Source: an uncultured Bacteroidales bacterium
GTDB lineage: Bacteria > Bacillota_I > Bacilli_A > ML615J-28 > CAG-698
Assembly (NCBI GenBank): GCA_964407835.1
Contig: CAYOXB010000004.1
Location: 1-60,575 of the forward strand
DNA length: 60,575 bases
Direction: 5' to 3'
The notes beneath the pieces were generated by a model. That model did no database searches. It had not been told where the DNA came from and saw only the letters and a program-made list of their open reading frames with translations. The translations under genes were made by a program, and so were the position numbers. Shown here piece after piece: positions 1 to 17,297 of this stretch. Position 1 is the first letter of the stretch. The number at the start of each line of letters is the position of its first letter.

Positions 1-201
1 GGAACAGAATCTGCAGCTGTAATTAAAGAAAGAGTTGAAAAAGCTCGACGTGAAGTAGATTTAGCTTATATGTATGACTATATTGTTGTAAATGATACAG
101 TAGAAAATGCAGCAGATAAAATAGTTGCTATAATTAGAGCAGAACACGCAACGGTTGAAAGAACAATGCGTAAATATAAAGAAATGTTAGGAGTAGAATA
201 A
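1..201 (+). CDS. gmk: Guanylate kinase, 3' partial (truncated by window start)
   Basis: Frame 1 reads GTESAAVIKERVEKARREVDLAYMYDYIVVNDTVENAADKIVAIIRAEH...*, matching the Gmk C-terminus (YDYIVVND); lies directly before rpoZ. Confidence 0.9.
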   Translation, partial: GTESAAVIKERVEKARREVDLAYMYDYIVVNDTVENAADKIVAIIRAEHATVERTMRKYKEMLGVE

Positions 202-444
202 ATGAGTGTTATACGAGATGGGATGAGATATCCATCAATAGATCAATTAGTTTCAAAAGCTCATTCTAAATACAAACTTGTAATTGGAGCAGCAAAAAGA
301 GCTAAAGATATTAATCTTACAAAAGACCATTTTGTGGAAAGACCATATAATACTAAGAGTATTGGAATTGCTCTTGAAGAAATATATTTAGATAAGATTA
401 AAATTGTTGATAAGAAAGAAGAAGAAGCATTCAATGAAGATTGA
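202..444 (+). CDS. rpoZ: RNA polymerase omega subunit
   Basis: YPSIDQL...SKYKLVIGAAKRAKDI...SIGIALEEI motif; gmk-rpoZ-priA order. Confidence 0.92.
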   Translation: MSVIRDGMRYPSIDQLVSKAHSKYKLVIGAAKRAKDINLTKDHFVERPYNTKSIGIALEEIYLDKIKIVDKKEEEAFNED

Positions 445-453
445 GTGTTTTTT
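427..453 (+). terminator. Intrinsic terminator overlapping the rpoZ stop
   Basis: GCATTCAAT-gaag-ATTGAGTGT stem with G-U pairs, followed by a T run. Confidence 0.55.
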
Positions 454-552
454 ATTACCTTTCTTTTTTTTTACTTATTTTTATGTTAAAATAGTAATAT
501 AAAGTAATTTAGAATAATACTACTAATATATTGTATAGAAGGAGGAACTAAA

Positions 553-2826
553 ATGTATGCGAAAATAATTGTAAACCTAGCGACAACTGAAGTTGATGAA
601 TTATATACTTATAAAGTTCCAGAACAACTAAAAAATGCTATTCATATTGGTAGTAGAGTATATATTGAGTTTGGATTTCAAAAAGTTTTAGGTTTTGTTT
701 TAGAACTTACTGATAAACTTGATTTTAAAGGTGAATTAAAAGAAATATTAGAAGTTATTGACTTCGAAAATGGTCTTAGTTTAGAACAAATTGAGCTTGC
801 TAAAAAGCTTGCATATGATTTAAATACCCCAACAATTTCAACTCTTAATTTAATGTATCCTAGTTTCATGCAAACAAAGTTAAACAAATCACTAATATGT
901 GTTAATTTTGAAGAACTTGATGCTGAGGTTGCTTTACTTTTTAAAGATAGTAAGAGCCTTTTAATAACTAATAAGTTATTAGAAAACTATAGCAAAATTA
1001 AAAAAGAAATAGATAGAGGCAATTTAGAGATTAAAACCAATATCTATACTTATGGTAAGAGAAAACAACTTAAATATTATTATCTAGTAGATAATAATTT
1101 TAAAGTGTTAAATAATAAAGAACTCGACCTTGTAGAATACTTAAGAAATAACGAAGAAGCAACTCTAGAAGAGTTGAAAGAAAATTTAGGTGTTAGCGAT
1201 AGTTTAATTAAAAAGTTAGAGACAAATGGAGTTATTAATTATACGTTAAGAGTACCAACAGAAAAGTATTTAAATAATGAACCAACTTATATTATTGAGC
1301 CTTCCACAACCTTAGAAATGTCTGAAAACAAGTTTTTTAAGCTTCAGGATAAACCTTATTTACTTTATTCTAATAATTATAAATTTAGAAACGAATTTAT
1401 TATTAAGGTTAGTGAGAGAATTATTAAAGAAGGTAAGCAAGTTTTAGTTATTACTCCAACTGTTTTAGAAAACATAAAGATTTATGATTTTATTAAAAAT
1501 GCATTACAAGCAAGAGTTTTAGCTTTTTCATCAAAATTATCAAATAGTGAATACTATTATAATTACAATCAATTAATAGATAATAATGTTGATCTTGTTG
1601 TTACAACAATGTCAGGATCTTTTCTTCCATTTAATAATCTAGGATTAGTAGTTGTTATTGATAGTGAAGATTCATACTATATTAATAGCCAATTTCCAAA
1701 GTATAATACTGTTGAGGTTGCTAAGTTTAGAGCCCATTATAATAATGCAAGACTAATACTTGCAACAGTTGCACCTAAAATAAGCGAATATTATCAATAT
1801 TTTTCAAATAAATACTCACTTATTTCTAGCCATGATAATCTAGGAACAAATAATATTGATTTGGTTAACATGAAAGAAGAAGTTTTAGATAACTTAATAA
1901 GTAGAAAGTTAAAAGAAGAGTTAACTAAAAACATAAATAATAATCAAATGAGTGTTTTAATCTTAAATAGCTTAGCTTATAGAAGATTAATTTTATGTAG
2001 TAAATGTGGAGAGATGTTAACTTGTCCAAACTGTAAGACTAATTTAGTTTATTCAAAAAACAAAAATAATTATAGTTGCTATAGTTGTAATTATCAAACC
2101 TCTAGACCAATATGTAGTTGTGGCTCTTCAAAATTTGATCACTATGGTTATGGTTTAGAACTTTTAAAGGAAGTATTAGAAAAAGAATATCCTAAAGTCA
2201 GAATAACTCAAGTTGATAGTGAGTCTTTAGTTACAGAAAATGATTATCAAAAGCTTTTAAGAGTTTTGAAAAACAAAGAAGTAGATATAATAATTGGAAC
2301 TTATCAAGTAGCTTCTTTAGTGAGCACAAATATTTCTTTAGTTGGGATTATTAATATTGATTTACTGTTAAATCAAAATGATTATAGAAGTAGCGAAGAA
2401 GTTTATTCTTTAATTACAAAGGCAAGATTAAATGAAAATGCTAAATTAATTATTCAAGGTTATAATTTAGAACATTATTCAATTATCAATGCAATTAATA
2501 ATAATTATGAAAACTTTTTTGAAAAAGAATTAGAAATGAGAAAAATGTTATCATATCCTCCATTTAATGAAATAAGTAGATTGTTAATTACTGGAGAATA
2601 TAAAGATATATATTATTTCTCAAATTATTTTAAAAAGATATTTTCAAGAATGACAAAAACACAAATTCTTGGACCTGTTTACTTATCTAGAATTAAAGGA
2701 ATTCAGTTAATTATTAAATACGAAGAATATGAAAAATTAGAACGTGTTATTAATGAAGTAGTGAAGAAGTTTGCAGATAAGAAAATATTAGTTAATTTTG
2801 AAAGATATCCATTAGGGTTTAATTAG
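553..2826 (+). CDS. priA: Primosomal protein N' (PriA) with degenerate helicase/ATPase motifs
   Basis: N-terminal 3'-DNA-binding region (YTYKVP...GSRVYIEFG), Cys-rich region (CSKC/CPNC/CYSC/CSC), C-terminal YPPF..ILGP, position between rpoZ and fmt. Walker A and DExH motifs are not conserved. Confidence 0.88.
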   Translation: MYAKIIVNLATTEVDELYTYKVPEQLKNAIHIGSRVYIEFGFQKVLGFVLELTDKLDFKGELKEILEVIDFENGLSLEQIELAKKLAYDLNTPTISTLNLMYPSFMQTKLNKSLICVNFEELDAEVALLFKDSKSLLITNKLLENYSKIKKEIDRGNLEIKTNIYTYGKRKQLKYYYLVDNNFKVLNNKELDLVEYLRNNEEATLEELKENLGVSDSLIKKLETNGVINYTLRVPTEKYLNNEPTYIIEPSTTLEMSENKFFKLQDKPYLLYSNNYKFRNEFIIKVSERIIKEGKQVLVITPTVLENIKIYDFIKNALQARVLAFSSKLSNSEYYYNYNQLIDNNVDLVVTTMSGSFLPFNNLGLVVVIDSEDSYYINSQFPKYNTVEVAKFRAHYNNARLILATVAPKISEYYQYFSNKYSLISSHDNLGTNNIDLVNMKEEVLDNLISRKLKEELTKNINNNQMSVLILNSLAYRRLILCSKCGEMLTCPNCKTNLVYSKNKNNYSCYSCNYQTSRPICSCGSSKFDHYGYGLELLKEVLEKEYPKVRITQVDSESLVTENDYQKLLRVLKNKEVDIIIGTYQVASLVSTNISLVGIINIDLLLNQNDYRSSEEVYSLITKARLNENAKLIIQGYNLEHYSIINAINNNYENFFEKELEMRKMLSYPPFNEISRLLITGEYKDIYYFSNYFKKIFSRMTKTQILGPVYLSRIKGIQLIIKYEEYEKLERVINEVVKKFADKKILVNFERYPLGFN

Positions 2827-2835
2827 AGGTAGAAG

Positions 2836-3771
2836 ATGAAAATAATTTTTATGGGAACACCTGAGTTTTCAGTTGAAATTTTAAAAGCACTTATGAAAAA
2901 CTATGAAGTAGTTTTAGTAATTACTCAACCAGATGCATATAACTATAGAAAGAAGGAGTATATTCCTACTCCTGTTAAAAAATATGCACTAGAAAATAGT
3001 TTAAAAGTTATGCAACCTGAAGAAATAAAAGAAGTTGAAAAACAAATTTTAAAAATAGATGTAGATTTAATAGTAAGTGCAGCTTATGGTCAATTTGTAT
3101 CGCAAAAAATAGTTAATCATCCAAAGCACAGAGCTATAAATGTTCATGGTTCGATTCTTCCTAAATATAGAGGAGGAGCACCAATTCAAAGAGCTATTAT
3201 GAATGGTGAAAAGGAAACTGGAGTTTCAATCATTTATATGGAAAAGAAAATGGATTCAGGAGATATTTTAAAAATATCCAAAATTCCAATTTTAGATGAA
3301 GATAATCAAGAAACTATTTTTAATAAACTAAGCATTCTTGGTAGTAAAGTTGTTGTGGAAGTAATTGAAGAATTAAAACAGGGAACTGCAAAAAGAGTTC
3401 CTCAAATAGAAGCAGAAGCTACTTTTGCTTATAATCTTAAAAAAGAAGATGAACTTATTGATTTTTCAAAAACAGCTCTAGAAGTCTTTAATCAAATAAG
3501 AGGATTAAATCCTAATCCTGGTGCTTATTTTAAAATGGATAAACAAAATATAAAAGTTTTTAATTCTGAAGTAGTAAATATGTTTACTAATAAAGAGTCT
3601 AGTATTATAATTGATATAACTAAGAAAAGTTTTATTGTTAGTTGTGGGAATAATACTGCAATAGCAATAACTGAAATTCAACTACCAGGTAAGAATAGAA
3701 TAAAAGTAAGTGATTTTCTTAATGGTAGGGGAAGAGAAATAGTTCAAATTAATAAGGAGATAAATAAATGA
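2836..3771 (+). CDS. fmt: Methionyl-tRNA formyltransferase
   Basis: MKIIFMGTPEF, TQPD, INVHGSILPKYRGGAPIQ, MDSGD motifs. Confidence 0.97.
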   Translation: MKIIFMGTPEFSVEILKALMKNYEVVLVITQPDAYNYRKKEYIPTPVKKYALENSLKVMQPEEIKEVEKQILKIDVDLIVSAAYGQFVSQKIVNHPKHRAINVHGSILPKYRGGAPIQRAIMNGEKETGVSIIYMEKKMDSGDILKISKIPILDEDNQETIFNKLSILGSKVVVEVIEELKQGTAKRVPQIEAEATFAYNLKKEDELIDFSKTALEVFNQIRGLNPNPGAYFKMDKQNIKVFNSEVVNMFTNKESSIIIDITKKSFIVSCGNNTAIAITEIQLPGKNRIKVSDFLNGRGREIVQINKEINK

Positions 3772-4319
3772 AACCTAAAATTATTTTTTCAAGAGATGAA
3801 ATGTTTCAAATGAATAGAGATATTCTTTTATCAAGAGGAGTAACTATTCAAGAGATTGCTGAAATTGCTTATGCTCAACAATCAAAATACAATCCTGATA
3901 TTTCAATGCAAGTATGTATTGAAAGTGTAGAAAAGATTCTAACATATAGAGATATTTTTCATCTTATACAATTAAGTGTAGAAATCGATCGTTTAACTGA
4001 AGAAGGAGTTTTTAGAAGCCCAATTCAAGAAATTATGAGAGCCGATCTAGGAATGTTTGGGATTGATGAAATATTTGGTCTAAATATTGCTGCAATGTAT
4101 GGAACAGTAGGTCAAACAAATTTTGGTGATATCGATGTTAATAAGCCTGGTGTTGTAAGAAGACTTAATGAAGAAGGCAAGGGAGAACAATGCCATACAT
4201 TTTTAGATGATGTTGTTGGAGCACTAGGTGCTGCAGCATCAACTAGAGTTGCCCAAATAGTTAGTGAAGATGAGTCTATTAAAGATCCTAACTATGAACC
4301 TATTAGATTTGATATTTAA
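3768..4319 (+). CDS. pgpA: Phosphatidylglycerophosphatase A family protein (YutG-like)
   Basis: FGIDEIFG, YGTVGQTNFG..D..KPG and TFLDDVVGALGAAA motifs; 4-bp overlap with fmt. Confidence 0.8.
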   Translation: MKPKIIFSRDEMFQMNRDILLSRGVTIQEIAEIAYAQQSKYNPDISMQVCIESVEKILTYRDIFHLIQLSVEIDRLTEEGVFRSPIQEIMRADLGMFGIDEIFGLNIAAMYGTVGQTNFGDIDVNKPGVVRRLNEEGKGEQCHTFLDDVVGALGAAASTRVAQIVSEDESIKDPNYEPIRFDI

Positions 4320-4327
4320 AGTTGCAA

Positions 4328-5257
4328 ATGGCTAAAATATATATCTGCCCTAATTGTAATGAATTACGCTTGCTTGATCTTTGCTTGAATTGTAATTGTA
4401 AAATTAAAACTAAAAAAAATATTTACTTTTTTCTTAAAAAAGTAAATACTTTTTTTAATTCAAGTAGTAACTATTATGAGCAAGAAAATAAAGAAATATT
4501 TTTAGTTATAAGTGAAGTAATTGAGTCAATAATGCCCCAAGGTAGAATTTTAGATCTTGGCTGTGGCGATGGTCGGTTAATTACTCCCTTAATTAAAGAT
4601 AACTATGATGTTATTGGTATGGATTTTTCTTTTAAAGTTTTAAAATCTTTTCAGAGTAAGCATAAATTTCACTCTAGAGATAACTACAAATTAATCTTAG
4701 CAGATGCTCATAAAATACCTTTAAAAGAAAATAGTGTTGATTTAGTTATTGCAAACAATCTATTTCATCTTTTAGAAAGTCCAGATGATGTAATTGCTGA
4801 AATTAAAAGAGTTTTAAATGAAGATGGTTATTTATTACAAATATCTAATAATATAACTAATGAATATTTTCACCAAGATAATAATTTTAATTTGTATTTT
4901 AAAATTATTAATTCATATAATAATTTTTATCAAGAAAGCTTAAAGAAATATAATTTAAAATTAAAGGAGCATAGCAATTTTAATATTTATAAATCTTTAC
5001 AAACAAACTTTAAGCTTAACAAAACTGTTCAAACTAAAACTATAATAGTAGAACATCATAAAAACATAAAAGATTTTTTTGCTCGCGAACTAAAACAGTT
5101 AGATTACTTAAAACAAGATATTCCAAAAAATATTAATCAAGCAATAATTAAGAATTTTTTAAAATATTTAAAAGAAAACAAGCTTTTAAATTTAGAAACT
5201 AGATTTAAAGAAAGTTTAAGTTTTATAATTGATTCTTATTCAAACATAAATAATTAA
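4328..5257 (+). CDS. Class I SAM-dependent methyltransferase with N-terminal Cys-rich (possible Zn) segment
   Basis: ILDLGCGDG motif I, GMDFS, ADAHKIPL..NSVDLV, LKRVL-like EIKRVLNEDG; CPNC..CLNC at the N-terminus. ATG 4328 preferred over TTG 4322. Confidence 0.8.
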   Translation: MAKIYICPNCNELRLLDLCLNCNCKIKTKKNIYFFLKKVNTFFNSSSNYYEQENKEIFLVISEVIESIMPQGRILDLGCGDGRLITPLIKDNYDVIGMDFSFKVLKSFQSKHKFHSRDNYKLILADAHKIPLKENSVDLVIANNLFHLLESPDDVIAEIKRVLNEDGYLLQISNNITNEYFHQDNNFNLYFKIINSYNNFYQESLKKYNLKLKEHSNFNIYKSLQTNFKLNKTVQTKTIIVEHHKNIKDFFARELKQLDYLKQDIPKNINQAIIKNFLKYLKENKLLNLETRFKESLSFIIDSYSNINN

Positions 5258-5465
5258 ACCCATTGTTTAGGTGTAAATAATGAGCTTTTAATATTTATGA
5301 CTATTTATTATATATTACTGGATTATAAAATTTAATAACAACGAAATTTAAAATTATAATTATATTGCCCAACGAATGTTTTTAAATATGTTATAATATT
5401 ATAGTTAAATTTGTAATAATACATAAAGGAAAATATAATTAAAATATTAGTATAGAGGAGAACAT

Positions 5466-7646
5466 ATGCATATAATTTTTTTATCTGTAATAGTTTTAGT
5501 GTTTTTAATAGTTAGCGGGTTAGTCATATTTAAGTTTCCTGAAAAAAAGACAATATATCTTAAGGTTTTATCAATTGCCTTGTTTTTTGTTTATCTCGTC
5601 AGGCTTTTTTCTTTTGATATGGTTAATCAAACTTTCAATTTATTTTATATAGATATCGATACACCAATAAATGCTAGCGATACGTGGTTATTTTCTCAAT
5701 TTCTTACTTTTAGTTTATTAATTATTAGGTGGTTTGGTGTTATAGTTGTAGGTTGGATAATTGTAAATATTATTCATCCTTTAAAAAAACTTAGCTTACT
5801 TATTGGTTTAATAGGCACTATTACATCACTACTTAGTATGGTTTTAATAAATTATCATTTAATTGCCTTCCAAAATAATTTGGATTTTAATTTAAGAACA
5901 ATACAGTTTATTATTGAGATTGGTTTAGTGCTTGCTATATCAGTTGTTTATTTAAAAGATGGACTTAAAGATTTAAAACTGTTTAAAGAGCCAAAAGAAC
6001 TATTGATATTTGCTTTAATTATTTTAGGTTCAATGTTTGCATTAATGCCACAACCAATTATCTATAATTTATTTGGTAATTATGGTGTAGTTCCTAAGAA
6101 ATTTAATGCGGAACATTTTGTTTTAATTTTACTACCTGTTGTTTTAATAATCGTTATATATCATTTAATGAAAAATAAAGATAAAGAACAAAAAGATGCG
6201 TTAATATTAATGATGGCAATCTCAGCAGTCTTTCAGTACTTCTATATGCGTAGACCTGGTTTTGCAGCCCTACCACTACATTTATGTAATACAGCGGTAA
6301 TCTTAATATTTTTTGGAGTCTTATTTAAAATTAAAAGTTTCTTCTATTTTTCTTATTTTGCTAATGTAATTGGAGCAATAGGAGGAATATTGCTACCAAA
6401 CTATAGTGCTGATTTTTATTCTTTTCAAGTAGTTCACTTTTTCTTTAATCATACTTATGCACTTATTATTCCGATATTAGCTGTTGCGCTTGGTGTTTTT
6501 GAAAAACCTAAGTTAAAATCAATGTATCAGGCTATAGCAGTATTTTCTGTTTACTTTATTGCAATGTTGTTTTTAAATGCTTGGTTTAATAATTATGCTC
6601 AAACGGATTATTTCTTCACTTATAGTGATTTTCTACCTGATATGTTTGGATTAATTAAACTAAGAAATAATTATATTGTATCGTTTGACATTAATGGATT
6701 AACATTTAAGTTTTTTTGGTTATTTCAAATGATATATTACTTTGTTTTTATTTTTTTGATGTTTGTTAGTTGGTATATATATGATGCTAGTTATCAAGCG
6801 GTAGCTCAAAATAGAGCCTTAAGAGCAAAACAAAAACAAATGAGAATAGATAAAAATTTATTATTAGTAGCACTTGATGGTAAGAGCTTACAAAATAGAA
6901 TGAATGAGGAATATAAAGATATGATTCAAATTATTAATTTTTCGAAAAGGTATGGGAAATCAAATAGGTATGCAGTTAAAAACTTTTCATTAGAAATTAA
7001 GGCTGGAGAAATATATGGATTTTTAGGACACAATGGTGCTGGAAAATCTACTACTATCAAAAGTATGGTAGGAATTCAGTCTATAACTGAGGGTGAAATG
7101 TATATAGATGGTTATTCAATTAAATCACAACCGATTGAAGCAAAGCTTAAAATTGGTTATGTATCTGATAACCATGCTGTTTATGAAAAACTTACTGGTA
7201 GAGAATATATTCATTATGTTTCAGAATTATATAAAATTGATAAAGAAACTAGGGATGAGCGTTTAAATAATTTACTTGAGATGTTGAACCTTGCTCATGC
7301 AATAGATAATGAAGTTAAATCATACTCACATGGTATGAAACAAAAGCTTGTTGTAATAGCTTCTTTAATTCATGAACCTTCAGTTTGGATATTAGATGAA
7401 CCACTTACTGGACTTGATCCTAGCTCATCATACCAAATTAAAGAGTTGATGAAAGAACATGCTAGAAAAGGTAATATTGTATTTTTCTCAAGTCATGTTA
7501 TTGAGGTTGTGGAAAAGGTTTGTACAAAAATAGCTGTAATTACAGAAGGTGAATTAACTGGGGTTTACGATGTAGAAGATTTAAAACAAAAAAATATTTC
7601 CTTAGAAACTTTGTACATGAAAGAAGAAGTTGAGAAGCAGGATTAA
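5466..7646 (+). CDS. YwaF/TMEM164-like multi-pass membrane domain fused to an ABC-2-type ATP-binding domain
   Basis: About 12 hydrophobic segments with LPLHLCN (aa 269-275) and HFFFNH (aa 324-329); C-terminal GHNGAGKST, YSHGMKQK, WILDE and SSH motifs intact; SD gagg before ATG. Confidence 0.8.
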   Translation: MHIIFLSVIVLVFLIVSGLVIFKFPEKKTIYLKVLSIALFFVYLVRLFSFDMVNQTFNLFYIDIDTPINASDTWLFSQFLTFSLLIIRWFGVIVVGWIIVNIIHPLKKLSLLIGLIGTITSLLSMVLINYHLIAFQNNLDFNLRTIQFIIEIGLVLAISVVYLKDGLKDLKLFKEPKELLIFALIILGSMFALMPQPIIYNLFGNYGVVPKKFNAEHFVLILLPVVLIIVIYHLMKNKDKEQKDALILMMAISAVFQYFYMRRPGFAALPLHLCNTAVILIFFGVLFKIKSFFYFSYFANVIGAIGGILLPNYSADFYSFQVVHFFFNHTYALIIPILAVALGVFEKPKLKSMYQAIAVFSVYFIAMLFLNAWFNNYAQTDYFFTYSDFLPDMFGLIKLRNNYIVSFDINGLTFKFFWLFQMIYYFVFIFLMFVSWYIYDASYQAVAQNRALRAKQKQMRIDKNLLLVALDGKSLQNRMNEEYKDMIQIINFSKRYGKSNRYAVKNFSLEIKAGEIYGFLGHNGAGKSTTIKSMVGIQSITEGEMYIDGYSIKSQPIEAKLKIGYVSDNHAVYEKLTGREYIHYVSELYKIDKETRDERLNNLLEMLNLAHAIDNEVKSYSHGMKQKLVVIASLIHEPSVWILDEPLTGLDPSSSYQIKELMKEHARKGNIVFFSSHVIEVVEKVCTKIAVITEGELTGVYDVEDLKQKNISLETLYMKEEVEKQD

Positions 7647-7648
7647 TT

Positions 7649-9259
7649 ATGTTTGCAAGGTTAAAGACTTTAGTTTTACTCCAGTTAAATAATAAATTTA
7701 AAAGATTTGAAAAAGGTTCAAAAAGATTATATGTGGCTATAGCAGTTAGTGCTGTTACTATTCTTATTGTAAGTGCAGTAGCAACCCTAGCAATATATGT
7801 AATAAAAAATATTTTCTTTTTGCCGGTTAACGAATTTTTCGCAATCTTTATTTTACTGTTAACGCAATTAATAAGTATTGTTACTGCTCTACTTGGTATA
7901 TCTAATGATTTATATCAAAGCAAGGACAACCAAATATTATTTCCTTTACCAGTAAAAAATGATGAAATATTTTTAAGTAAAATGATTGTTTATTATATTC
8001 AAGAGTTGCTTAGGAATATTTATATTTTAATTCCAATTTTAGTAGCACTTGGTTTTAATCAAGGAGCAGGATTTTTCTACTATTTGAATATTATCCCTAT
8101 ATCTTTGTTGTTACCGCTTATTTCCGTTTTTACGGCAACAATTTTATCGGTTCCTTTTGTGTATTTAAAAAACTTTTTGAAAAATCATAATATTATTAGT
8201 GCAATTCTTGCTGTTTTACTATTTGGAGTTGTATTTTATATCATTTATCAATTAGTTATTTTGATACCAGTACCGATTAGATTAGTTCAGTTATATAACA
8301 GGTTTATTATTGGGTTATCTTTGTTCATGCAAAATGTTGCTCAATATGGGTTTATATACAGATATATTGGTTATATTTTATACAGTATTAATTCTGGACT
8401 TAATTACTTATATGTTATTTTAATTACATTAAGCTTAGGATTATTAAATTATTTAATTGCCAAACCTTTATATTTTAATCTAATTTCAAGATCAAATGAA
8501 AATACAGTAAAAACACAAAAACATGTGAAGATACGTGAATCTAAAACGATGTTTATTACTTTTTTTAGGAAAGAATTAACGATTGCTAGAAGAAGTCCTA
8601 ATGAATTAATTGATGATTATGCGCTTTTAATGAGCCTTCCGGCAATTATGTTTGTTTTGAATTATATTTATATGGGGATGAATAGATCGAGTATTGGAAA
8701 TAGTTTAGTTTTAATTTTAAACGTCTTTATTGTTTTGTTAGTTGTTGCAGGATCAAATACAGCAGCAGCTACATCAATAACAAGAGAAGGTTATGAATTT
8801 ATCTTGTTTAAGACTGCTCCATATGATACTTCAAAGATGGCTTGGGCTAAGATGCTGTTTAATCTTCTTTTCACAACACTAGTAATAACAATAAGTTTTA
8901 TACTTTTTAGTTTTGCACTTCCGGTATTTCCGAAAATTGATATATTATTATTATTAATATTGACTATATTTGTAAATATTGGCCATATGCTATGGTCAAT
9001 GCAACTTGATATTTTAAATCCAAAATTATCAGAATATGCAACATCGGGAAGTTTAAGTTCAAATATAAATGTGAAGAAATCATTAACTATTGGAATAATA
9101 CTTTCTTTAGTATTTACAGTAGCAAGTGTAGTTTCTTTTGTTTTAATGGATAGACTTGGTTGGATCTTAATGTTAACTCTAGGTGCTTTATTTTTAGTTT
9201 ATCGCTTTATTAGCTTTAATAACTATTTAAAAGCATACTTTATCGAGATTGAGTACTAG
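7649..9259 (+). CDS. ABC-2-type transporter permease (multi-pass, 536 aa)
   Basis: Many TM segments in two halves (LYQSKDNQILFPLP; SITREG...LFKTAP); starts 2 bp after the ATPase fusion. Confidence 0.75.
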   Translation: MFARLKTLVLLQLNNKFKRFEKGSKRLYVAIAVSAVTILIVSAVATLAIYVIKNIFFLPVNEFFAIFILLLTQLISIVTALLGISNDLYQSKDNQILFPLPVKNDEIFLSKMIVYYIQELLRNIYILIPILVALGFNQGAGFFYYLNIIPISLLLPLISVFTATILSVPFVYLKNFLKNHNIISAILAVLLFGVVFYIIYQLVILIPVPIRLVQLYNRFIIGLSLFMQNVAQYGFIYRYIGYILYSINSGLNYLYVILITLSLGLLNYLIAKPLYFNLISRSNENTVKTQKHVKIRESKTMFITFFRKELTIARRSPNELIDDYALLMSLPAIMFVLNYIYMGMNRSSIGNSLVLILNVFIVLLVVAGSNTAAATSITREGYEFILFKTAPYDTSKMAWAKMLFNLLFTTLVITISFILFSFALPVFPKIDILLLLILTIFVNIGHMLWSMQLDILNPKLSEYATSGSLSSNINVKKSLTIGIILSLVFTVASVVSFVLMDRLGWILMLTLGALFLVYRFISFNNYLKAYFIEIEY

Positions 9260-9726: not shown

Positions 9727-12700
9727 ATGATAAAAAACAAAAGAATTTTATTATTATTTGTAGGGGTATTGATGTTACTAATAATGGCAGCATGTTCAAG
9801 AGATATCAAAGTTGTCTTTGAAGTAAATGGCGGAACTGCTATTACTGACTATATAGTTCCTCAAGGAACTATTATTGAAGAACCAACAATTAAAAGAACT
9901 GGTTATACATTCTTGGGTTGGTTTGAATCTAAAGAGTTTGAAGAAACATCAAGATTTACATTTGAAAATAAAGTTAATAGAAATTTAAAATTATATGCAA
10001 AGTGGCAAATTAATACTTATACCCTTAAGCTTACTCCTAATAATAGCGAGGTTATTGCTGATAGAAGTATAGAATTTGGTAAAGACATTAACTTGCCAAC
10101 ACTAACAAAGGAAGGTCATGGATTTGATGGATGGTATACTAATCCAGAATTTACTGGCCAAAAATTTACAGCAAGACAAATGCCAGCAGAAAATCTACAG
10201 TTATATGCAAAATGGAATATATTTGAATATTCGATTAGATTTTTTGTTGATGATGAAGTTTATGTTACAAAAACAGTAGAACACGGTAATGATTTATTAG
10301 ATGTTCCAGCTCCACCTGTAAAAGAAGGTAAAGTAAGAGCTTGGGATATAGTAGATTTTACTAATATTACTGAAGACTTAGATGTATTCTTAATAGAAGA
10401 AGATGCTTATTATACTGTTACAATAAAAGATGAATTTGGAACTATTTTTGAAACACTAACAGTAAAACATGGTGATAACTTTGTTCCTACTGTTACACCA
10501 ACTAAAGAAGGTTATACTTTTTTAGGTTATAATCCGGGAACTGATTTTGAAGTAAAAACTAATCTTGAAGTATTGGTTGTTTATGAAAGAATAGTATACA
10601 ATGTATTTTTTGTTAATCACTTAGGAACATTAATTAAAGAAGTAAAAGTTAATCACGGTGAAGATGCTCAAGCTCCAAGCTATAGTGCACCAGAAGGATA
10701 TAATTTTGATGGTTGGAGTGGAAGTTTTACAAATGTTAAGTCTAACTTAACTATTACTGCTACAATTTCTCCAAAAACTTATTTGCTTATATTAGATGCT
10801 GCTGGTGGTAAATTCTTAGACAATAATGAAGTTAAGACAATTGAAAAAGAATACCAAAGTAATGTAGGTATTCCAGAAACTCCGCATCGTCTTGGTTATC
10901 AATTTGGTGGTTGGTTTGAAAATGAAGAAGGAACTGGAACAGCTTATGTTTTCAGCCCAAGTTCATCAATGCCTCTTAATGGTCTTAAGTTATATGCGAA
11001 ATGGCATTCAATTAATTACACAATTACATATTTGAATTTAAATGGGATGGCTCACACTAATCCAACAACATTCAATATAACTTCCCCAACTATTATATTT
11101 AGTAACCCAACATCTAGAACGGGCTATACTTTTGTAGGTTGGTTTGATGAGTTAGTTGGCGGTAATCAAGTTATGGAATTAGAACATGCTTCAACAATAG
11201 GCAATATTATTCTATATGCAAGATGGGAAGCAATTAATTATTCGATTACTTATGTCTTAGAATCAGGTTTAACACATTCGAATCCAACATCGTTTACAAT
11301 TCAAACACCGCTTATCGTATTTACAAATCCTAGTCCAAAAACAGGCTATACATTTTTAGGTTGGTATAATGAAGCTGTAGGTGGTAGCAAAGTTGAATCT
11401 CTTCTTTTAGGCTCAACTGGAAATAAAACATTTTATGCTAGATGGCAAGCAAATACATATACTATTACATTTGATTTAGATGGTGGTGTAGGCCCAGCAA
11501 GTTTAGAAGTTACTTATGATGAAAACTTCACTCTAGGGGCAGCCTCAAAATTAGGTTATACATTTACTGGTTGGACATATTTAGGAAATTCATTTGGAGA
11601 TGGTAAATGGGAATTAACTGAAAATATTGTTTTAAAAGCAAATTATCAAGTAATTGATTATTCAATTAACTATAATAATTTAGAAGGCGTTTCTCATTCA
11701 AACCCAGCTACATATAATATAGAAACAGCAACTATTACACTTACAGATCCTAGTGCAAGAAATGGTTATACATTTGTTGGTTGGTTTGATTCTTTAGTGG
11801 GTGGAAATAAAATTGAAGAAATAGAAACGGCCTCAACTGGAGAAAAAGTTGTATTTGCTAGATGGGAAGTAGTTACTTACTTACTAACCTTTGATAATCT
11901 ACAAGGTACAACAGAAGGAAACCCAAATACTTATAATATAGAAACAGCAACATTTACTCTTACAGACCCTAATGCAAGACTAGGTTATACATTTACAGGC
12001 TGGTATACAGAACTTAGTGGTGGTAGTAAAGTTGAAGAAGTTCTTAAAGGTTCAACGGGGAATAAAATATTATATGCAAGATGGGAAGTAATTACTTATA
12101 CAATTTCTTATGGGAATTTAAACGGAGTAAGTCATTCAAATCCAACTACATTTAATATAGAATCTCCAACAATCACCTTTGTTAATCCAACTCCAAGGAC
12201 TGGTTTTACATTCTTAGGTTGGTATGATAATATTACAGGTGGTAATAAAGTTGAAGAAATTATCGCAGGTTCTACAGGTAGTAAAACTGTCTATGCAAGA
12301 TGGCAAGCAAATGAATATATTATTACTTATGATTTAGATGGTGGTATTGGACCAGAATCGTTAAATGTAGTATATAATTCTATGTTTACTTTAGGTGTAG
12401 CCTCAAAAGTAGGGTTTACATTCTCTGGTTGGTTATACCAAGGTGAACCATTTGAAAGTGGTCAATATACTTTTGATCATAGTATTACAGTTGTAGCAAA
12501 TTGGACAGTTTGGCCAAGAATCGAATTTGATTTTAAAGGTGGAAGTGGAACACAATATATTTCTCAAGCGCCTGGTACAGCTGTTAATGCTCCTACTAAT
12601 CCAGTAAGAGCTGGTTATACATTTGTTTACTGGTATGAACTTGATGAAGAAGTTGAATATGTGTTTACTATTATGCCAAATGAAGATATAACTCTATTAG

Positions 12701-15700
12701 CAAAATGGCAAGCTATCGATTATTCAATTAGTTATAATAATTTAGAAGGAACAACACATTCAAATCCTAACCTATATAATATAGAAACAGCAACAATTAC
12801 ACTTACAGACCCTAGTCTAAGAAGTGGTTATACATTTGTAGGTTGGTTTGATACTTTAACTGGTGGAAGTGAAGTAGATGAGATTGAACTTGGTTCGATG
12901 GGTAATCTTGATTTATATGCAAGATGGGAAGCAAAGACATATATTATTTACTATAATACAAATGGTGGGGATATTTTAGAAGATACTTTAGAAGTAACTT
13001 ATAATGAACCATTCACTTTAGCTTCAGCAACAAAGGTTGGTTTTACATTTGTTGGTTGGACTTATGAAGATGATCCATTTACTAGTGGTATATGGACATT
13101 TACTGAAAGTATTGTTATTAAGGCAGTTTATCAAATAATTTCTTACGATTTGGAATATGAGAATCTATTTGGTTCGACACATTCTAATTCTCTTAGTTAT
13201 AATGTGGAATCAGTAATAACTCTTACAGACCCAACAGCAAGAAATCATTATACATTTGTTGGTTGGTTTGATGCTTTAACAAGCGGAAATAAGATTGAAG
13301 AAATAGAATACGGTACTACTGGAAATCTCACATTATATGCAAGATGGGAAGCAGTAGAATACTCACTTACTTTTGATAATCTACAAGGAACAACACATAC
13401 AAATCCTAATTCATATAATATAGAAACAACAACAATTACTCTTACAGCACCAACTGCAAGAAGTGGTTATATATTTATAGGCTGGTATACACAAAATGTT
13501 GGTGGTACTAAGGTTGAAGCTATTGTTTTAGGTTCAACTGGAAATAAAGTATTATATGCAAGATGGAGTCCAATAAATTATTCAATTACTTATAGTAATT
13601 TAGAAGGAATGACTCATTCAAATCCTTCAACATATAATATAGAATCAATTATAATGCTTACTGATCCAAGTTTAAGAACTGGTTATACATTTGTTGGTTG
13701 GTTTGATAGTTTAACTGGTGGAAATAAGATTGAAGAAATTGAAGCTGGTTCAGCTGGAACTCTTACATTATATGCAAGATGGGAAGTTGTAGAATACTTA
13801 CTTGATTTTGAAAACTTACAAGGAACAGTTCATTCAAATCCTCTAACATATACAATCGAAGATGGATTTATACTTGAAGAACCAGGAATTAGAACTGGAT
13901 TTAGTTTCATTGGTTGGTTTGATGATGAAGATAGTGGTAGTAGAGTTTTAGAAGTAGTAGTAGGAACTACAGGCAATCTTACATTGTATGCAAGATGGGA
14001 AGTAGCTTATTATGATGTTTCTGGAACAGTTGTATTTGAAAAATATGATATATCTTTTGATCAAGAAGAAATAGAAGTAACAAAAACTACAGAATCAACT
14101 ACTAATTTCTTTATGAGTCAAATCTTACACGGAACTCAAATTTCCCCTATTATTAATTATCAAGGATATGTATTTGTTAGATTCGTGTATGATGGTGTAG
14201 AATATACAAATATAGAAGAATTAATTACAGTTGTTGGCAACATCCAAGCTGAGGACCTAACTATATATTATGATAGAATTATTTTAGAAGTTGCATTCAC
14301 TCAAAAAGTAGAAACAGGGGATGCATTCATAACTGAGATTAGATATGTATATTATAATGATGAATTATTGAATGTAAGTATTCCTCAATTTCTATATAGT
14401 CCTATTAATCAAACAGTAATGTGGGAAAGATCAGTATTTAAAAATATTATAATGACTACTGATGTTTCAGCAGTATATTATATTTATGGAAATCAAAGTA
14501 TTCGTTTTGTTGATGGGAATAGTATTATTTATATTGCTTCAGTACAAAATGCAGGTATTGGTGAAGATGAGAATACAATCTTTATAACTGAAGCTTCTCT
14601 TTTATGGGATTTAAAACGATCAGGTTATAAGTTTTTAGGTTGGTACTACCTTGATGGTGGTGTAGAGATTGCTTTAATTAAGGGAAGTTATAAATATAAT
14701 GATTTCCCATTAGTAGGAATAACAGAAATCTATACAAAATGGGAAGCTCTACCTAAATATAATAAGCCTGAAGTAACTGATGTAGAAGTTGATGAAGAAA
14801 ATGAAATAACAATTGAATGGACTCATGATTATGAAAGTCTTGATATTCCAACATTTGAATTTGTTATTAACCAAATTTTAGTTGATAGTTATATAACAGT
14901 AGTTTCTCAAGTAGGAAATACATTTACATTAACTATTTCATCAAGTTCAGCTGATTTTGAATTGTTTGCTGCTTTAGCTGATGTTGGAATGCATAGTGTT
15001 AGAGTTAGGGCAATTGGTGATGATGAGACAGTTGTTTCTAGTGACTTATCTGATACATTTATATTTGAAAAAGAATCTATTTACGATACTCCTCCAGAGG
15101 CAGTTAATGTTTATAACTACTTTATTATTGAAGAATATAAGGGTTCTAGTAGATATATTTTCTATACAAATATGACTTATCAATTTAATGATTCGTATAG
15201 TTTTGAAATTCTTACAGGAACTTCACTTGTTACACTAGAAAATGATTATACAATGAAGATGAATAATATTAGTGGTGAATTTAGGTTTAAACTAAATAAA
15301 CCAGGTCAACCTTCAGTAATATATGATGCTTTAATTATTAAAGATGTGAAACAATTTACTTATGGTAATAACTATCAAACATATTTAAGAGAAACAAATA
15401 TAGATAGCTCAAGCTATAAATTACAAGATGCTCCTTACTTTGTAGGAACAAAAAATCCATTTATGCTTGATATTAGACTATCTAATACTCGTGGTAATCA
15501 GATCTTATTGAGTGATGCTCATCTTAAATATGATTTCTATTTATTCAATGGGGCAGAATATGTTTTAATTCCTAAGAGTGAATTAGATGATCATGTTCAG
15601 ATGTTGCCAAATAATAAATTTGAATTTGAATCTGGTACTGAAGGAAATGAATATAAAATCGTTGTTCAACCTTTATACCAAGCAAGTAATATGTTTGTTG

Positions 15701-17136
15701 AAGAATTAGTATATGAAGTTAAGATTAATGATGGTTATAATGCGTTTTCTCATGCTGATTTAAAAGATTTATATTCTGATGAAAGTGTTAAGAAAATTAA
15801 TCTACACGCAAATATTACACCTATTCTTTCAAATGACCAACTAAATGCAGATGGCTCACCAAAGAATGTAAGAAATGGTAAAGGTAATGTTTATAGTAGA
15901 AATTATAGTTCTTCTAATCTAGATAATTTAGTAATTGAAGGTAACTTCATGACAATTAATGGTAGCAACCTACCTTACAGTAACGCAAGAAGTGGTTCTG
16001 GTAATGTAGGATATGCTGAGGCATTTGAAATTGTTAATGTACAAGTTGGAATATTCAATTATGATGTTTCAGGAAATGAAGATAATTTATTTACAATTAA
16101 CAATTTACAAATAATTGGAAATACTACTGTACCATCAGTTAACTTTGGTGGAACAGCTGAAGAAATTTTATTACAAGAACGCCTAATGAGTAGAAACTCT
16201 GGTGGTTATGTTGGCGTTATGATTTCAAATGGTTCAACAAACTTTACTAATATGCAAGTAAGATTTACAGTATTAGGATTTGATAATAATGCCTATGGTG
16301 AAGATGTAAAAATGACTTTAGATCATATTATAGTTGATGATATTTGGGCTAATGGTCTTTATGTATATGGTGGAAGTTGGACAAGCGTTAATAACTCGTT
16401 CTTTGGCCAAAGCGGTGGACCTGCTTTCCATATTGTTGATAGCCGTCAAGGTAGTGGACCAAGTAATATTAATACTCCAGTATTAGAGCTTAATAATACT
16501 GTTATTGAAAACTATATTTCTGGTGAAGAAGCATGGTTTAAAGCTTATGGTATGTCTAGTCTAGCTTTACAGTTAAAATCACAAATCAGCCAAGGTATAG
16601 CACCTACTGGTAGAGATATTATTAAATTAGTTACGCATCCAGTTACTGGTGTTCAAACAGAAATGTTGAATTTCATTTTATTAACTGAACCAAGTAACCT
16701 TGCTGTTGAAAAAGACGGTGAATCAAATACTATTGGTGCCTCAGAAGTTATAATTATAATTGATGGCAAAGTAATATATAGACCATTCTATTATTTATCA
16801 GTTCCTGATCCAAGAATAGACGATGGTAAATATGCTTTCCCAATAGGTTTATATAGTGATGTTAATGATTTTGCGCAACTAGCAACAGATATTGGAGCAT
16901 ACGCATTTGATCAGTATGGTCAAGTGTTAGCTGAAGCACAAATTGCTAATCTTGCAACACTTGCATCATTTTATAATATGACTGCAATAGAAGTAGTTAA
17001 TGCTTTAATGCTAGCAGGAGGGAATCCAGCTAATATGGTATTACCAACTGAAGGAATACCAAAATACTTTGAAGTGTTATCACCTCTTCCAGTTTTCCCT
17101 GATGGATTTGCTAATATTATTATGGGATTAGAATAA
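9727..17136 (+). CDS. Giant InlB B-repeat (Listeria-Bacteroides repeat) surface lipoprotein, 2469 aa
   Basis: Signal peptide with lipobox MAAC; about 20-22 repeats with GYTFxGW...LYAxW; FN3-like HSVRVRAIG segment; SD aaagga. Confidence 0.85.
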   Translation: MIKNKRILLLFVGVLMLLIMAACSRDIKVVFEVNGGTAITDYIVPQGTIIEEPTIKRTGYTFLGWFESKEFEETSRFTFENKVNRNLKLYAKWQINTYTLKLTPNNSEVIADRSIEFGKDINLPTLTKEGHGFDGWYTNPEFTGQKFTARQMPAENLQLYAKWNIFEYSIRFFVDDEVYVTKTVEHGNDLLDVPAPPVKEGKVRAWDIVDFTNITEDLDVFLIEEDAYYTVTIKDEFGTIFETLTVKHGDNFVPTVTPTKEGYTFLGYNPGTDFEVKTNLEVLVVYERIVYNVFFVNHLGTLIKEVKVNHGEDAQAPSYSAPEGYNFDGWSGSFTNVKSNLTITATISPKTYLLILDAAGGKFLDNNEVKTIEKEYQSNVGIPETPHRLGYQFGGWFENEEGTGTAYVFSPSSSMPLNGLKLYAKWHSINYTITYLNLNGMAHTNPTTFNITSPTIIFSNPTSRTGYTFVGWFDELVGGNQVMELEHASTIGNIILYARWEAINYSITYVLESGLTHSNPTSFTIQTPLIVFTNPSPKTGYTFLGWYNEAVGGSKVESLLLGSTGNKTFYARWQANTYTITFDLDGGVGPASLEVTYDENFTLGAASKLGYTFTGWTYLGNSFGDGKWELTENIVLKANYQVIDYSINYNNLEGVSHSNPATYNIETATITLTDPSARNGYTFVGWFDSLVGGNKIEEIETASTGEKVVFARWEVVTYLLTFDNLQGTTEGNPNTYNIETATFTLTDPNARLGYTFTGWYTELSGGSKVEEVLKGSTGNKILYARWEVITYTISYGNLNGVSHSNPTTFNIESPTITFVNPTPRTGFTFLGWYDNITGGNKVEEIIAGSTGSKTVYARWQANEYIITYDLDGGIGPESLNVVYNSMFTLGVASKVGFTFSGWLYQGEPFESGQYTFDHSITVVANWTVWPRIEFDFKGGSGTQYISQAPGTAVNAPTNPVRAGYTFVYWYELDEEVEYVFTIMPNEDITLLAKWQAIDYSISYNNLEGTTHSNPNLYNIETATITLTDPSLRSGYTFVGWFDTLTGGSEVDEIELGSMGNLDLYARWEAKTYIIYYNTNGGDILEDTLEVTYNEPFTLASATKVGFTFVGWTYEDDPFTSGIWTFTESIVIKAVYQIISYDLEYENLFGSTHSNSLSYNVESVITLTDPTARNHYTFVGWFDALTSGNKIEEIEYGTTGNLTLYARWEAVEYSLTFDNLQGTTHTNPNSYNIETTTITLTAPTARSGYIFIGWYTQNVGGTKVEAIVLGSTGNKVLYARWSPINYSITYSNLEGMTHSNPSTYNIESIIMLTDPSLRTGYTFVGWFDSLTGGNKIEEIEAGSAGTLTLYARWEVVEYLLDFENLQGTVHSNPLTYTIEDGFILEEPGIRTGFSFIGWFDDEDSGSRVLEVVVGTTGNLTLYARWEVAYYDVSGTVVFEKYDISFDQEEIEVTKTTESTTNFFMSQILHGTQISPIINYQGYVFVRFVYDGVEYTNIEELITVVGNIQAEDLTIYYDRIILEVAFTQKVETGDAFITEIRYVYYNDELLNVSIPQFLYSPINQTVMWERSVFKNIIMTTDVSAVYYIYGNQSIRFVDGNSIIYIASVQNAGIGEDENTIFITEASLLWDLKRSGYKFLGWYYLDGGVEIALIKGSYKYNDFPLVGITEIYTKWEALPKYNKPEVTDVEVDEENEITIEWTHDYESLDIPTFEFVINQILVDSYITVVSQVGNTFTLTISSSSADFELFAALADVGMHSVRVRAIGDDETVVSSDLSDTFIFEKESIYDTPPEAVNVYNYFIIEEYKGSSRYIFYTNMTYQFNDSYSFEILTGTSLVTLENDYTMKMNNISGEFRFKLNKPGQPSVIYDALIIKDVKQFTYGNNYQTYLRETNIDSSSYKLQDAPYFVGTKNPFMLDIRLSNTRGNQILLSDAHLKYDFYLFNGAEYVLIPKSELDDHVQMLPNNKFEFESGTEGNEYKIVVQPLYQASNMFVEELVYEVKINDGYNAFSHADLKDLYSDESVKKINLHANITPILSNDQLNADGSPKNVRNGKGNVYSRNYSSSNLDNLVIEGNFMTINGSNLPYSNARSGSGNVGYAEAFEIVNVQVGIFNYDVSGNEDNLFTINNLQIIGNTTVPSVNFGGTAEEILLQERLMSRNSGGYVGVMISNGSTNFTNMQVRFTVLGFDNNAYGEDVKMTLDHIIVDDIWANGLYVYGGSWTSVNNSFFGQSGGPAFHIVDSRQGSGPSNINTPVLELNNTVIENYISGEEAWFKAYGMSSLALQLKSQISQGIAPTGRDIIKLVTHPVTGVQTEMLNFILLTEPSNLAVEKDGESNTIGASEVIIIIDGKVIYRPFYYLSVPDPRIDDGKYAFPIGLYSDVNDFAQLATDIGAYAFDQYGQVLAEAQIANLATLASFYNMTAIEVVNALMLAGGNPANMVLPTEGIPKYFEVLSPLPVFPDGFANIIMGLE
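9811..14000 (+). repeat. Intragenic tandem InlB B-repeat array (about 20 units of roughly 65-75 aa)
   Basis: Recurring GYTFVGWFD..GG...LYARWE units with DNA-level near-identity (e.g. tataatatagaaacagcaac near 11715, 11933 and 12774); boundaries approximate. Confidence 0.85.
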
Positions 17137-17170: not shown

Positions 17171-17218
17171 AAAAAGTCTATATTTTCTCTTTTAAGCTTG
17201 GAATCTATAGACTTTTTT
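17171..17218 (+). terminator. Terminator-like hairpin after the giant lipoprotein gene
   Basis: AAAAAGTCTATA...TATAGACTTTTT inverted repeat with a long loop and T tract. Confidence 0.55.
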
Positions 17219-17239
17219 AATGCACCGTTTTGGTGCATT
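17219..17239. promoter_or_regulatory. Palindromic operator candidate upstream of the XRE gene
   Basis: Perfect AATGCACC-N5-GGTGCATT inverted repeat about 60 bp upstream of the ATG. Confidence 0.55.
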
Positions 17240-17297
17240 GAAATTTCTTGGTTTTTAAAAAGAATTGGAGTATTATATAATTAAGAGGGTGACTATT

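Follow-up and report, generated by a model that had tools for sequence, protein, structure and literature searches.

What does a membrane domain of the acyl-enzyme type do in one polypeptide with the ATPase of a transporter of the ATP-binding cassette (ABC) type? This question is raised by g1, a gene on contig CAYOXB010000004.1 (GenBank assembly GCA_964407835.1) of an uncultured bacterium. The stretch analysed, positions 1 to 60,575 of this contig, is called the window here. It has a base composition of ~28% G+C, the standard bacterial code gives long open reading frames (ORFs) and its nearest relatives are Acholeplasmataceae. Both component kinds of g1 are known, namely, an ATGY superfamily domain and an ABC-2/ABCA-type ATPase. 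Their fusion is real and old, and g1 forms with g2, g3 and g4 a conserved operon that is found across Mycoplasmatota and Bacillota. This cassette might represent an ATP-coupled machine for acyl transfer or remodelling in the outer leaflet that is tied to its own surface lipoprotein, a reading to which a probability of about 45% is given.

The ORF at 5466-7646 had been singled out in a preliminary description of the window, and its coordinates, motifs and residue numbers were correct. It is preceded by a Shine-Dalgarno-like AGAGGAG and codes for a protein with 13 predicted transmembrane (TM) helices in front of the ATPase. The features of g1 are as follows (aa, amino acids).

5466..7646 (+): g1, 726-aa fusion protein of a 13-TM membrane module and an ABC ATPase; single ORF from ATG to stop
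5466..6065 (+): N-terminal extension, aa 1-200, with six predicted TM helices, family-specific; from the model
6102..6785 (+): TMEM164/YwaF-type (ATGY superfamily) seven-helix domain, aa 213-440; from PF14808 and the model helices
6285..6287 (+): codon TGT of Cys274 in the LPLHLCN motif (residues 269-275), candidate acyl-accepting nucleophile
6450..6452 (+): codon CAT of His329 in the HFFFNH motif (residues 324-329), candidate catalytic base or metal ligand
6717..6875 (+): last TM helix running on as a cytoplasmic stalk of ~30 residues, aa 418-470, then linker to the ATPase; continuous helix in both models
6921..7646 (+): ABC-2/ABCA-type nucleotide-binding domain, aa 486-726; from PF00005

g1 was modelled with AlphaFold2 on an alignment of 105 sequences, which are the full-length fused homologues down to ~34% full-length identity. 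The mean predicted local distance difference test score (pLDDT) was 91.2 for the whole protein. For residues 1-470, pLDDT was 93.7 and the predicted template modelling score (pTM) 0.91. The model consists of four parts: a six-helix N-terminal extension, the seven-helix TMEM164/YwaF domain, a stalk helix and the ABC-2/ABCA-type ATPase. Six of the 13 membrane helices lie in residues 1-200 (2-23, 25-47, 78-103, 107-136, 143-174 and 176-192) and seven in residues 215-440 (215-235, 240-260, 273-287, 290-309, 320-341, 350-374 and 418-440). Pfam gave no match for the extension, and hhalign detected no similarity between it and the TMEM164 domain of g1 (probability 1.2%). A short linker joins the end of the stalk at residue 470 to the ATPase at 486-726, and nine Lys or Arg residues are found in the stalk and linker region 441-485.

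The fusion was followed through other genomes. A search with the membrane part of g1 alone yielded 118 protein clusters, nearly all of 710-795 aa and with both PF14808 and PF00005. Their members carry database names such as "YwaF family protein", "ATP-binding cassette domain-containing protein" or "ABC-2 type transport system ATP-binding protein", and the homologue of Acholeplasma oculi is annotated as "EcsA". As the databases already contain and name these proteins, the architecture in itself is no discovery. In a genome scan with one genome per species, 458 loci with a g1 relative were detected, and the best 80 of these 458 were used for all locus counts given here and below. They come from Acholeplasmataceae, Izemoplasmatales, Erysipelotrichaceae, metagenome-assembled genomes (MAGs) of Bacilli and MAGs of Clostridia (Scatosoma, Christensenella, Caccopulliclostridium). 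Two are from cultured carriers, A. oculi ATCC 27350 and Ca. Izemoplasma sp. B36. g1 was fused in all evaluable species-representative genomes (77/77), which belong to Acholeplasmatales, Izemoplasmatales, Erysipelotrichaceae and Christensenellales-like Clostridia. With 118 clusters of equal architecture and this count, the fusion cannot be attributed to an assembly artefact.

An assembly error, a frameshift or a chance juxtaposition of two genes was weighed nevertheless. One homologue, P0075 in locus L006, looks split. It lies on a contig with a coverage of ~1.2 and many broken genes, and was rejected as a natural split gene. The independent assemblies behind the 118 clusters and 77 genomes, the continuous high-confidence helix that spans the junction in the model and clean split forms, seen in two independent samples with the stop codon of one gene overlapping the start of the next, all stand against such an error, and its probability is practically negligible. 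In these two samples (L009/L010), a 476-aa 13-TM protein overlaps by 8 nucleotides (nt) with the start of a 295-aa ATPase. The ATPase bears the motifs of the fused family, the permease of the fused family comes next and the N-terminal extension is present also in the split forms; L011 is alike. In the preliminary description, two separate ORFs had been named as a finding that would speak against the idea. Splitting was seen in distant relatives only, and there the two overlapping adjacent genes and the same permease argue in the manner of a Rosetta stone for a functional link of the two parts.

An exhaustive profile search returned 907 representatives at E ≤ 1e-3. Two length classes could be read from the top 150 of them, one of ~700-830 aa and one of ~450-500 aa, the latter with the TMEM164 domain at ~200-450. 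The profile of the N-terminal extension matched most, not all, of the representatives checked. Taken together, split and stand-alone forms point to the enzyme module as an autonomous unit that was recruited to an ABC ATPase and later fused with it. Among the stand-alone forms, the YwaF-like 13-TM protein at 1766-4048 of L092 is without an ABC neighbour and adjoins transposase fragments. Another one, in L094 (P0204), lies among unrelated housekeeping genes and gave no match to the profile of the N-terminal extension.

The nature of the membrane domain was established with Pfam. PF14808 matched aa 213-438 over profile positions 2-215 of 217 with 72.4 bits against a cut-off of 25 and an E value of 4.8e-20, which confirmed the TMEM164/YwaF-type domain proposed earlier for the membrane part. 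The NCBIfam profile TIGR02206, "TMEM164-related integral membrane acyltransferase", reached 63 bits over positions 4-178 of 222. Since this is below its cut-off of 75, the domain of g1 is regarded as a divergent branch and not as a typical YwaF. While the whole membrane part of ~480 aa had been described as TMEM164-like, this holds for residues 213-440; residues 1-200 are the separate six-helix extension. With the bacterial YwaF/TP0381 proteins (TIGR02206; former Pfam PF09529), g1 has the LPLHLC-type motif and the dyad in common. Classical YwaF proteins are short and stand alone in the membrane, whereas the branch of g1 has the extension and, within the cassette, the ATPase.

In the 105 fused homologues, His217, Pro270, His272, Leu273, Cys274 and His329 as well as several prolines and glycines are invariant, and Asn275, Asn300 and Asn328 nearly so. 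Gly303, 29 residues past Cys274, is invariant, too. A wider set of 149 representatives, clustered at 50% identity, included unfused relatives. Cys274 was kept in 137 and His329 in 138 of the 143 representatives with a residue at the position, while position 272 is either His or Gln and position 275 either Asn or His. Thus, judged by their conservation, Cys274 and His329 behave in the manner of a catalytic dyad. This agrees with the preliminary description for these two residues; His324, which had been included there, varies among the homologues and was dropped as an active-site residue for this reason. The arginine pair 262-263 was considered as a binder of the lipid head group and rejected, being conserved in close relatives only.

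The closest characterised counterpart is human TMEM164. Its Cys123 is the nucleophile of the acyl thioester, His181, His124 and Glu106 are arranged around a metal ion and Gly155 gives room for the acyl chain (PMC12830759). Via the acyl-Cys thioester, the enzyme moves an acyl chain between phospholipids without coenzyme A (CoA) (PMC12830759; bioRxiv 10.1101/2022.07.06.498872). In the ATGY superfamily, the dyad sits on core helices 2 and 4 (bioRxiv 10.1101/2022.07.06.498872). In the model of g1, Cys274 is on the third and His329 on the fifth of the seven domain helices, which correspond to these core helices. g1 and human TMEM164 share the PF14808 match over the whole profile, seven helices of which the third begins with a Cys and the fifth contains a His, a conserved Gly ~30 residues past the Cys and an Asn or His right after it. 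The dyad residues are 55 residues apart in g1 compared to 58 for C123/H181. By helix position and spacing, Cys274/His329 would be the equivalent of C123/H181. Unlike the human protein, g1 has a six-helix extension of 200 aa before the domain and an ABC ATPase after it.

The ATGY superfamily, which consists of AIG1/ADTRP, TMEM164, GPC1, YwaF and YpjA, holds hydrolases as well as transferases of equal dyad geometry, and the two cannot be separated by sequence alone. g1 could therefore be a hydrolase like the AIG1/ADTRP branch that deacylates a lipid or the g4 anchor, the latter for instance in order to release the giant protein, with the transporter disposing of the products. However, the characterised members with a Cys nucleophile (TMEM164, GPC1) are transferases and the hydrolase branch uses Thr, so that a hydrolase is considered improbable.

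The ATPase was recognised by ABC_tran (PF00005) at aa 504-647 with an E value of 4.8e-27. Walker A (G521-T529), the signature YSHGMKQK at 620-627 (S621-G623) and H677 are invariant in the 105 homologues, as are D644-E645 of Walker B with the catalytic residue and L650-D651 of the D-loop. Covalent joining of the membrane domain to a functional-looking ABC-2-type ATPase was stated correctly before, there being a single ORF with conserved motifs. The accompanying statement that all ATPase motifs are intact is right for Walker A and B, signature, D-loop and H-loop, but not for the Q-loop, in which Gln is replaced by Asp568. This Asp, whose position was taken from an ABCA3 alignment, is likewise invariant in the 105 homologues. 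Going by these motifs, the ATPase is apparently active.

Among the NCBIfam subfamilies, drrA (TIGR01188) fitted best with 200 bits, which is below its cut-off of 312 and does not make g1 a member. In the PDB, the top sequence matches were ABCA3, ABCA7, ABCA4 and ABCA1 (whole-sequence E values of 1e-62 to 1e-55), followed by Thermotoga TM_1403 and TM0544 and by NosF. Many ABC-2/ABCA-type transporters handle lipids or lipid-linked molecules. In common with the type V systems DrrAB and ABCA1/3/4/7, which give the best ATPase scores, a separate polytopic permease is encoded adjacent to g1. In contrast to them, the ATPase of g1 is not a soluble stand-alone subunit, the Gln of its Q-loop is an Asp and the permease is a member of the PF16949/PF09847 families, which are uncharacterised.

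This resemblance also fits a general role in lipid remodelling or repair, in which a lysolipid or glycolipid is flipped or extracted by the transporter and then re-acylated or transacylated by the tethered domain, much as in the LplT-Aas pair for lysophospholipid repair, and g3 and g4 are only co-transcribed passengers. Besides the ABCA lipid transporters as the most similar ATPases, the activity of TMEM164 as a phospholipid-to-lysophospholipid transacylase and the stand-alone 13-TM homologues in unrelated contexts would agree with it. The composition of the cassette is harder to bring in line with such passengers (see below), and this explanation is considered rather unlikely.

By fold, the ATPase was closest to the EcsA chain of 9a6w, an integrative model of EcsA-RasP, with a template modelling score (TM-score) of 0.89 at 26% identity in a Foldseek search with the full g1 model, in which matches of the ATPase dominated. 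EcsAB-RasP of Bacillus subtilis is a precedent for an ABC ATPase that partners an intramembrane enzyme. It differs from g1 in several respects: the resemblance to EcsA is structural only, the permease next to g1 matches PF16949 or PF09847 and not EcsB, and the enzyme of g1 is a fused acyl-enzyme domain, whereas RasP is an associated metalloprotease.

The genes that follow g1 are listed here with the hairpin behind them.

7649..9259 (+): g2, 536-aa polytopic membrane protein, presumed permease partner; related to PF16949/PF09847
9268..9711 (+): g3, 147-aa protein anchored by an N-terminal TM helix, with an outside domain of ~110 aa
9727..17136 (+): g4, 2469-aa surface lipoprotein with Flg_new repeats; lipobox LIMAAC with Cys23 at nt 9793-9795
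15064..17133 (+): C-terminal module of g4 (~650 aa; aa ~1780-2469), beta-helix-like
17215..17243 (+): terminator-like hairpin closing the operon; 13-bp stem and T-rich tail, 79 nt past the g4 stop

The intergenic gaps are 2 nt (g1-g2), 8 nt (g2-g3) and 15 nt (g3-g4) in the window. Promoter-like matches in the region were at chance level, with 86 found and 79.8 expected. Among 72 evaluable genomes, g2 comes after g1 in 71. Its match to PF16949 (ABC_tran_2) is weak in the window and above the cut-off in L003, and PF09847 (12TM_1) matches the counterparts of L004 and L006. EcsB (PF05975) had no match in the permease neighbours. An internal duplication of g2 was not found by hhalign (probability 0.07%) and, for this reason, a pseudo-dimeric permease is not claimed from the sequence.

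An ORF of 110-230 aa with poorly conserved sequence is present at the position of g3 in 54 of 61 loci. Of 60 loci, 57 have a large downstream ORF, with products of 700-3300 aa. A lipobox was found in 53 of these 57 large proteins (46 by a strict pattern and seven by eye). The C-terminal module of g4 is common to the large proteins of all six loci compared first, even the most distant ones, and was detected in 37 of the 57 downstream large ORFs. The module is absent from the other 20, 15 of which are truncated where the locus ends, while five have a second large ORF. The module gave weak Pectate_lyase_5/Beta_helix matches only, and none in the PDB or NCBIfam. A profile search with it found 25 proteins, all unnamed or called "InlB B-repeat". 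Upstream of g1, each locus compared has different genes. That g3 and the C-terminal module of g4 accompany g1-g2 over two phyla while the upstream genes vary is hard to reconcile with mere passengers, as the explanation by general lipid remodelling would have it.

The constant presence of extracytoplasmic proteins in the cassette, together with the occasional fusion of g3 to g4, a hint that the proteins form a physical complex at the membrane, would suit a mechanotransmission system like FtsEX, LolCDE or MacB. ATP hydrolysis would then alter the conformation, release or activity of g3-g4, and the YwaF module would mainly anchor the ATPase in the membrane or regulate it as a sensor. EcsA, which matches the ATPase best by fold and is modelled with the intramembrane protease RasP (9a6w), is compatible with this. 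On the other hand, the permease sequence is without the large extracytoplasmic domain of the MacB/FtsX type, and a near-universal Cys/His dyad is unexpected for a purely structural anchor. Mechanotransmission is thus seen as quite unlikely.

The topology of g1 is among the arguments for the outer-leaflet machine. As the ATPase must be cytoplasmic, the C-terminus of g1 is inside and its N-terminus outside. The predicted inside loops contain 27 Lys or Arg per 98 residues compared to 7 per 123 in the outside loops, which fits the positive-inside rule. In the model, the helix ends that bear LPLHLCN and His217 would thereby be the outer ones, and His329 would lie some nine residues deeper than the outside.

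On this basis, g1 would be the ATPase subunit of an ABC-2/ABCA-type transporter that carries a catalytically competent acyl-enzyme domain at its N-terminus, and the products of g2-g4 would join it in one envelope machine. Two g1 chains would dimerise via their nucleotide-binding domains on the 12-TM permease g2. ATP binding and hydrolysis would move the permease, and the stalk helix would move the tethered 13-TM enzyme module. Cys274 and His329, possibly helped by His217, His272, Asn275, Asn300 and Gly303, would act at the outer-leaflet ends of the helices, where acyl-CoA and acyl-ACP (acyl carrier protein) are absent as donors. A membrane lipid would supply an acyl chain, which Cys274 would bind as a thioester and pass to an acceptor in the outer leaflet. 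The preferred acceptor would be the lipid anchor of the cassette lipoprotein, followed by a lysolipid or glycolipid moved by the transporter. This model is a proposal with regard to its substrate, its stoichiometry, the side on which the site lies, the link to ATP and the choice of transfer over hydrolysis; the domain identities, the conserved dyad and ATPase motifs, the fused and split forms and the operon are observations.

The version with the lipid anchor of the g4-type lipoprotein as acceptor is rather unlikely when taken separately. In this version, the cassette would be a dedicated ATP-powered acylation machine. Its ABC part would position or extract the diacylglyceryl anchor of the giant lipoprotein or clear a lysolipid by-product, and the Cys/His domain would add or exchange an acyl chain outside; such a dedicated machine is put forward with the same reserve. 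Functional analogues exist. In Lnt, a phospholipid donates an acyl chain that passes through a Cys thioester to a lipoprotein at the membrane's outer face, and in LplT-Aas a lipid transporter is coupled to an acyltransferase. The likeness is one of function only; folds and families are unrelated, and neither system involves an ABC ATPase.

Several observations weigh against the outer-leaflet machine or its lipoprotein-anchor version. The active-site side predicted for g1 is extracytoplasmic, with the site at the outer leaflet, and is opposite to that of human TMEM164, which is cytosolic with a portal predicted to face the cytosol. Foldseek with the membrane module of g1 gave no match in the PDB with E < 0.9. 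Single-sequence and profile searches of the TMEM164 domain against PDB chains returned chance matches only, and the human structure 9LW1 was not among them. Four or five fused representatives in the set of 143 are without Cys274 or His329. They may be inactive pseudo-enzymes or alignment errors. The replacements in these fused members (within representatives P0119-P0266) are Tyr, Ser, Thr or Pro for Cys274 and Gln, Gly, Asn or Ile for His329. The 13-TM module also occurs alone, without an ABC neighbour (L094, 1402-2742), and from such stand-alone modules it follows that the enzyme needs no ATP in principle.

The remaining four of the 57 large proteins (L063, L076, L081 and L089) have a fused TM anchor of the g3 type and no lipobox. 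Hence, a lipoprotein anchor cannot be the universal substrate. Furthermore, a lipobox is weak evidence in wall-less bacteria, as most surface proteins there are lipoproteins anyway. The same fusions of g3 and g4 suggest that both belong to one surface structure. All four loci are from MAGs of Clostridia, and their anchor-fused large proteins carry the g4 module.

The g1 family was not seen in Acholeplasma laidlawii, a species with reported Lnt-independent N-acylation. No protein of A. laidlawii was present among the named homologues or the top 80 genome loci. g1 as the missing lipoprotein N-acyltransferase of this species was considered and is unsupported, as no A. laidlawii homologue is among those listed. 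Finally, the literature describes no experiment or function for bacterial YwaF, PF16949, PF09847 or TIGR02206 members. The earlier remark that no characterised example is known agrees with this, as none was found in the literature.

The combination of a 13-TM acyl-enzyme module fused to an ATPase within a four-gene surface-lipoprotein cassette was found described nowhere in the literature searched. New are the conserved cassette, the relationship of split and fused forms and an active site predicted to face outward; the cassette and the split forms, like the N-terminal extension, had been missed in the preliminary description. A real coupling would make g1 the first case of an ABC motor with a built-in intramembrane acyl-enzyme. 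The bacterial YwaF/TMEM164 branch, the PF16949/12TM_1 permeases and the widespread giant surface proteins of the mostly uncultured Acholeplasmatales, Izemoplasmatales and gut Clostridia would then become accessible to functional study for the first time. The system bears on how acyl chains are moved at the outer face of the membrane without activated acyl donors and on the retention of very large proteins by a cell that has no wall. With an anchor-acylation machine, if true, wall-less and related bacteria would have a way, independent of Lnt, of providing surface proteins with additional acyl chains and a firm anchor. The idea is testable with the cultured carrier A. oculi ATCC 27350.

Some neighbours of the cassette were recorded in addition. 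Upstream of it in the window, a PgpA/CobZ-like phosphatase is encoded at 3768-4319 (+) and a methyltransferase dependent on S-adenosylmethionine (SAM) at 4322-5257 (+), the latter with a Cys-rich, zinc-ribbon-like N-terminal segment and a TTG start; neither is conserved in the other loci. Directly past the terminator, at 17265-18182 (+), lies the gene of a membrane-bound regulator with an HTH_3 (helix-turn-helix) domain and DUF1648 and SdpI-like TM domains. It could control the cassette or be unrelated. L004 belongs to P0114, with 854 member sequences the largest cluster of the gut type. Just upstream of its cassette (1-7756), another giant protein, with Flg_new and leucine-rich repeats (LRR), and a small HTH regulator are encoded.

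Further into the window, a 579-aa ABC half-transporter is encoded at 20862-22601 (+). Its ABC_membrane domain is normal and its nucleotide-binding domain degenerate, with no Walker A (LAVLFVDNNNDRAM), VINE as Walker B and no LSGGQ; there is no adjacent partner gene. A second large lipoprotein of 1539 aa at 25483-30102 (+) shows the lipobox LVSC, Big_2 repeats and a right-handed beta-helix, and did not match the profile of the g4 C-terminal module. At 52474-54549 (-), a 691-aa protein combines an atrophied Ig domain (aBig_2) with a Peptidase_C39-like domain.

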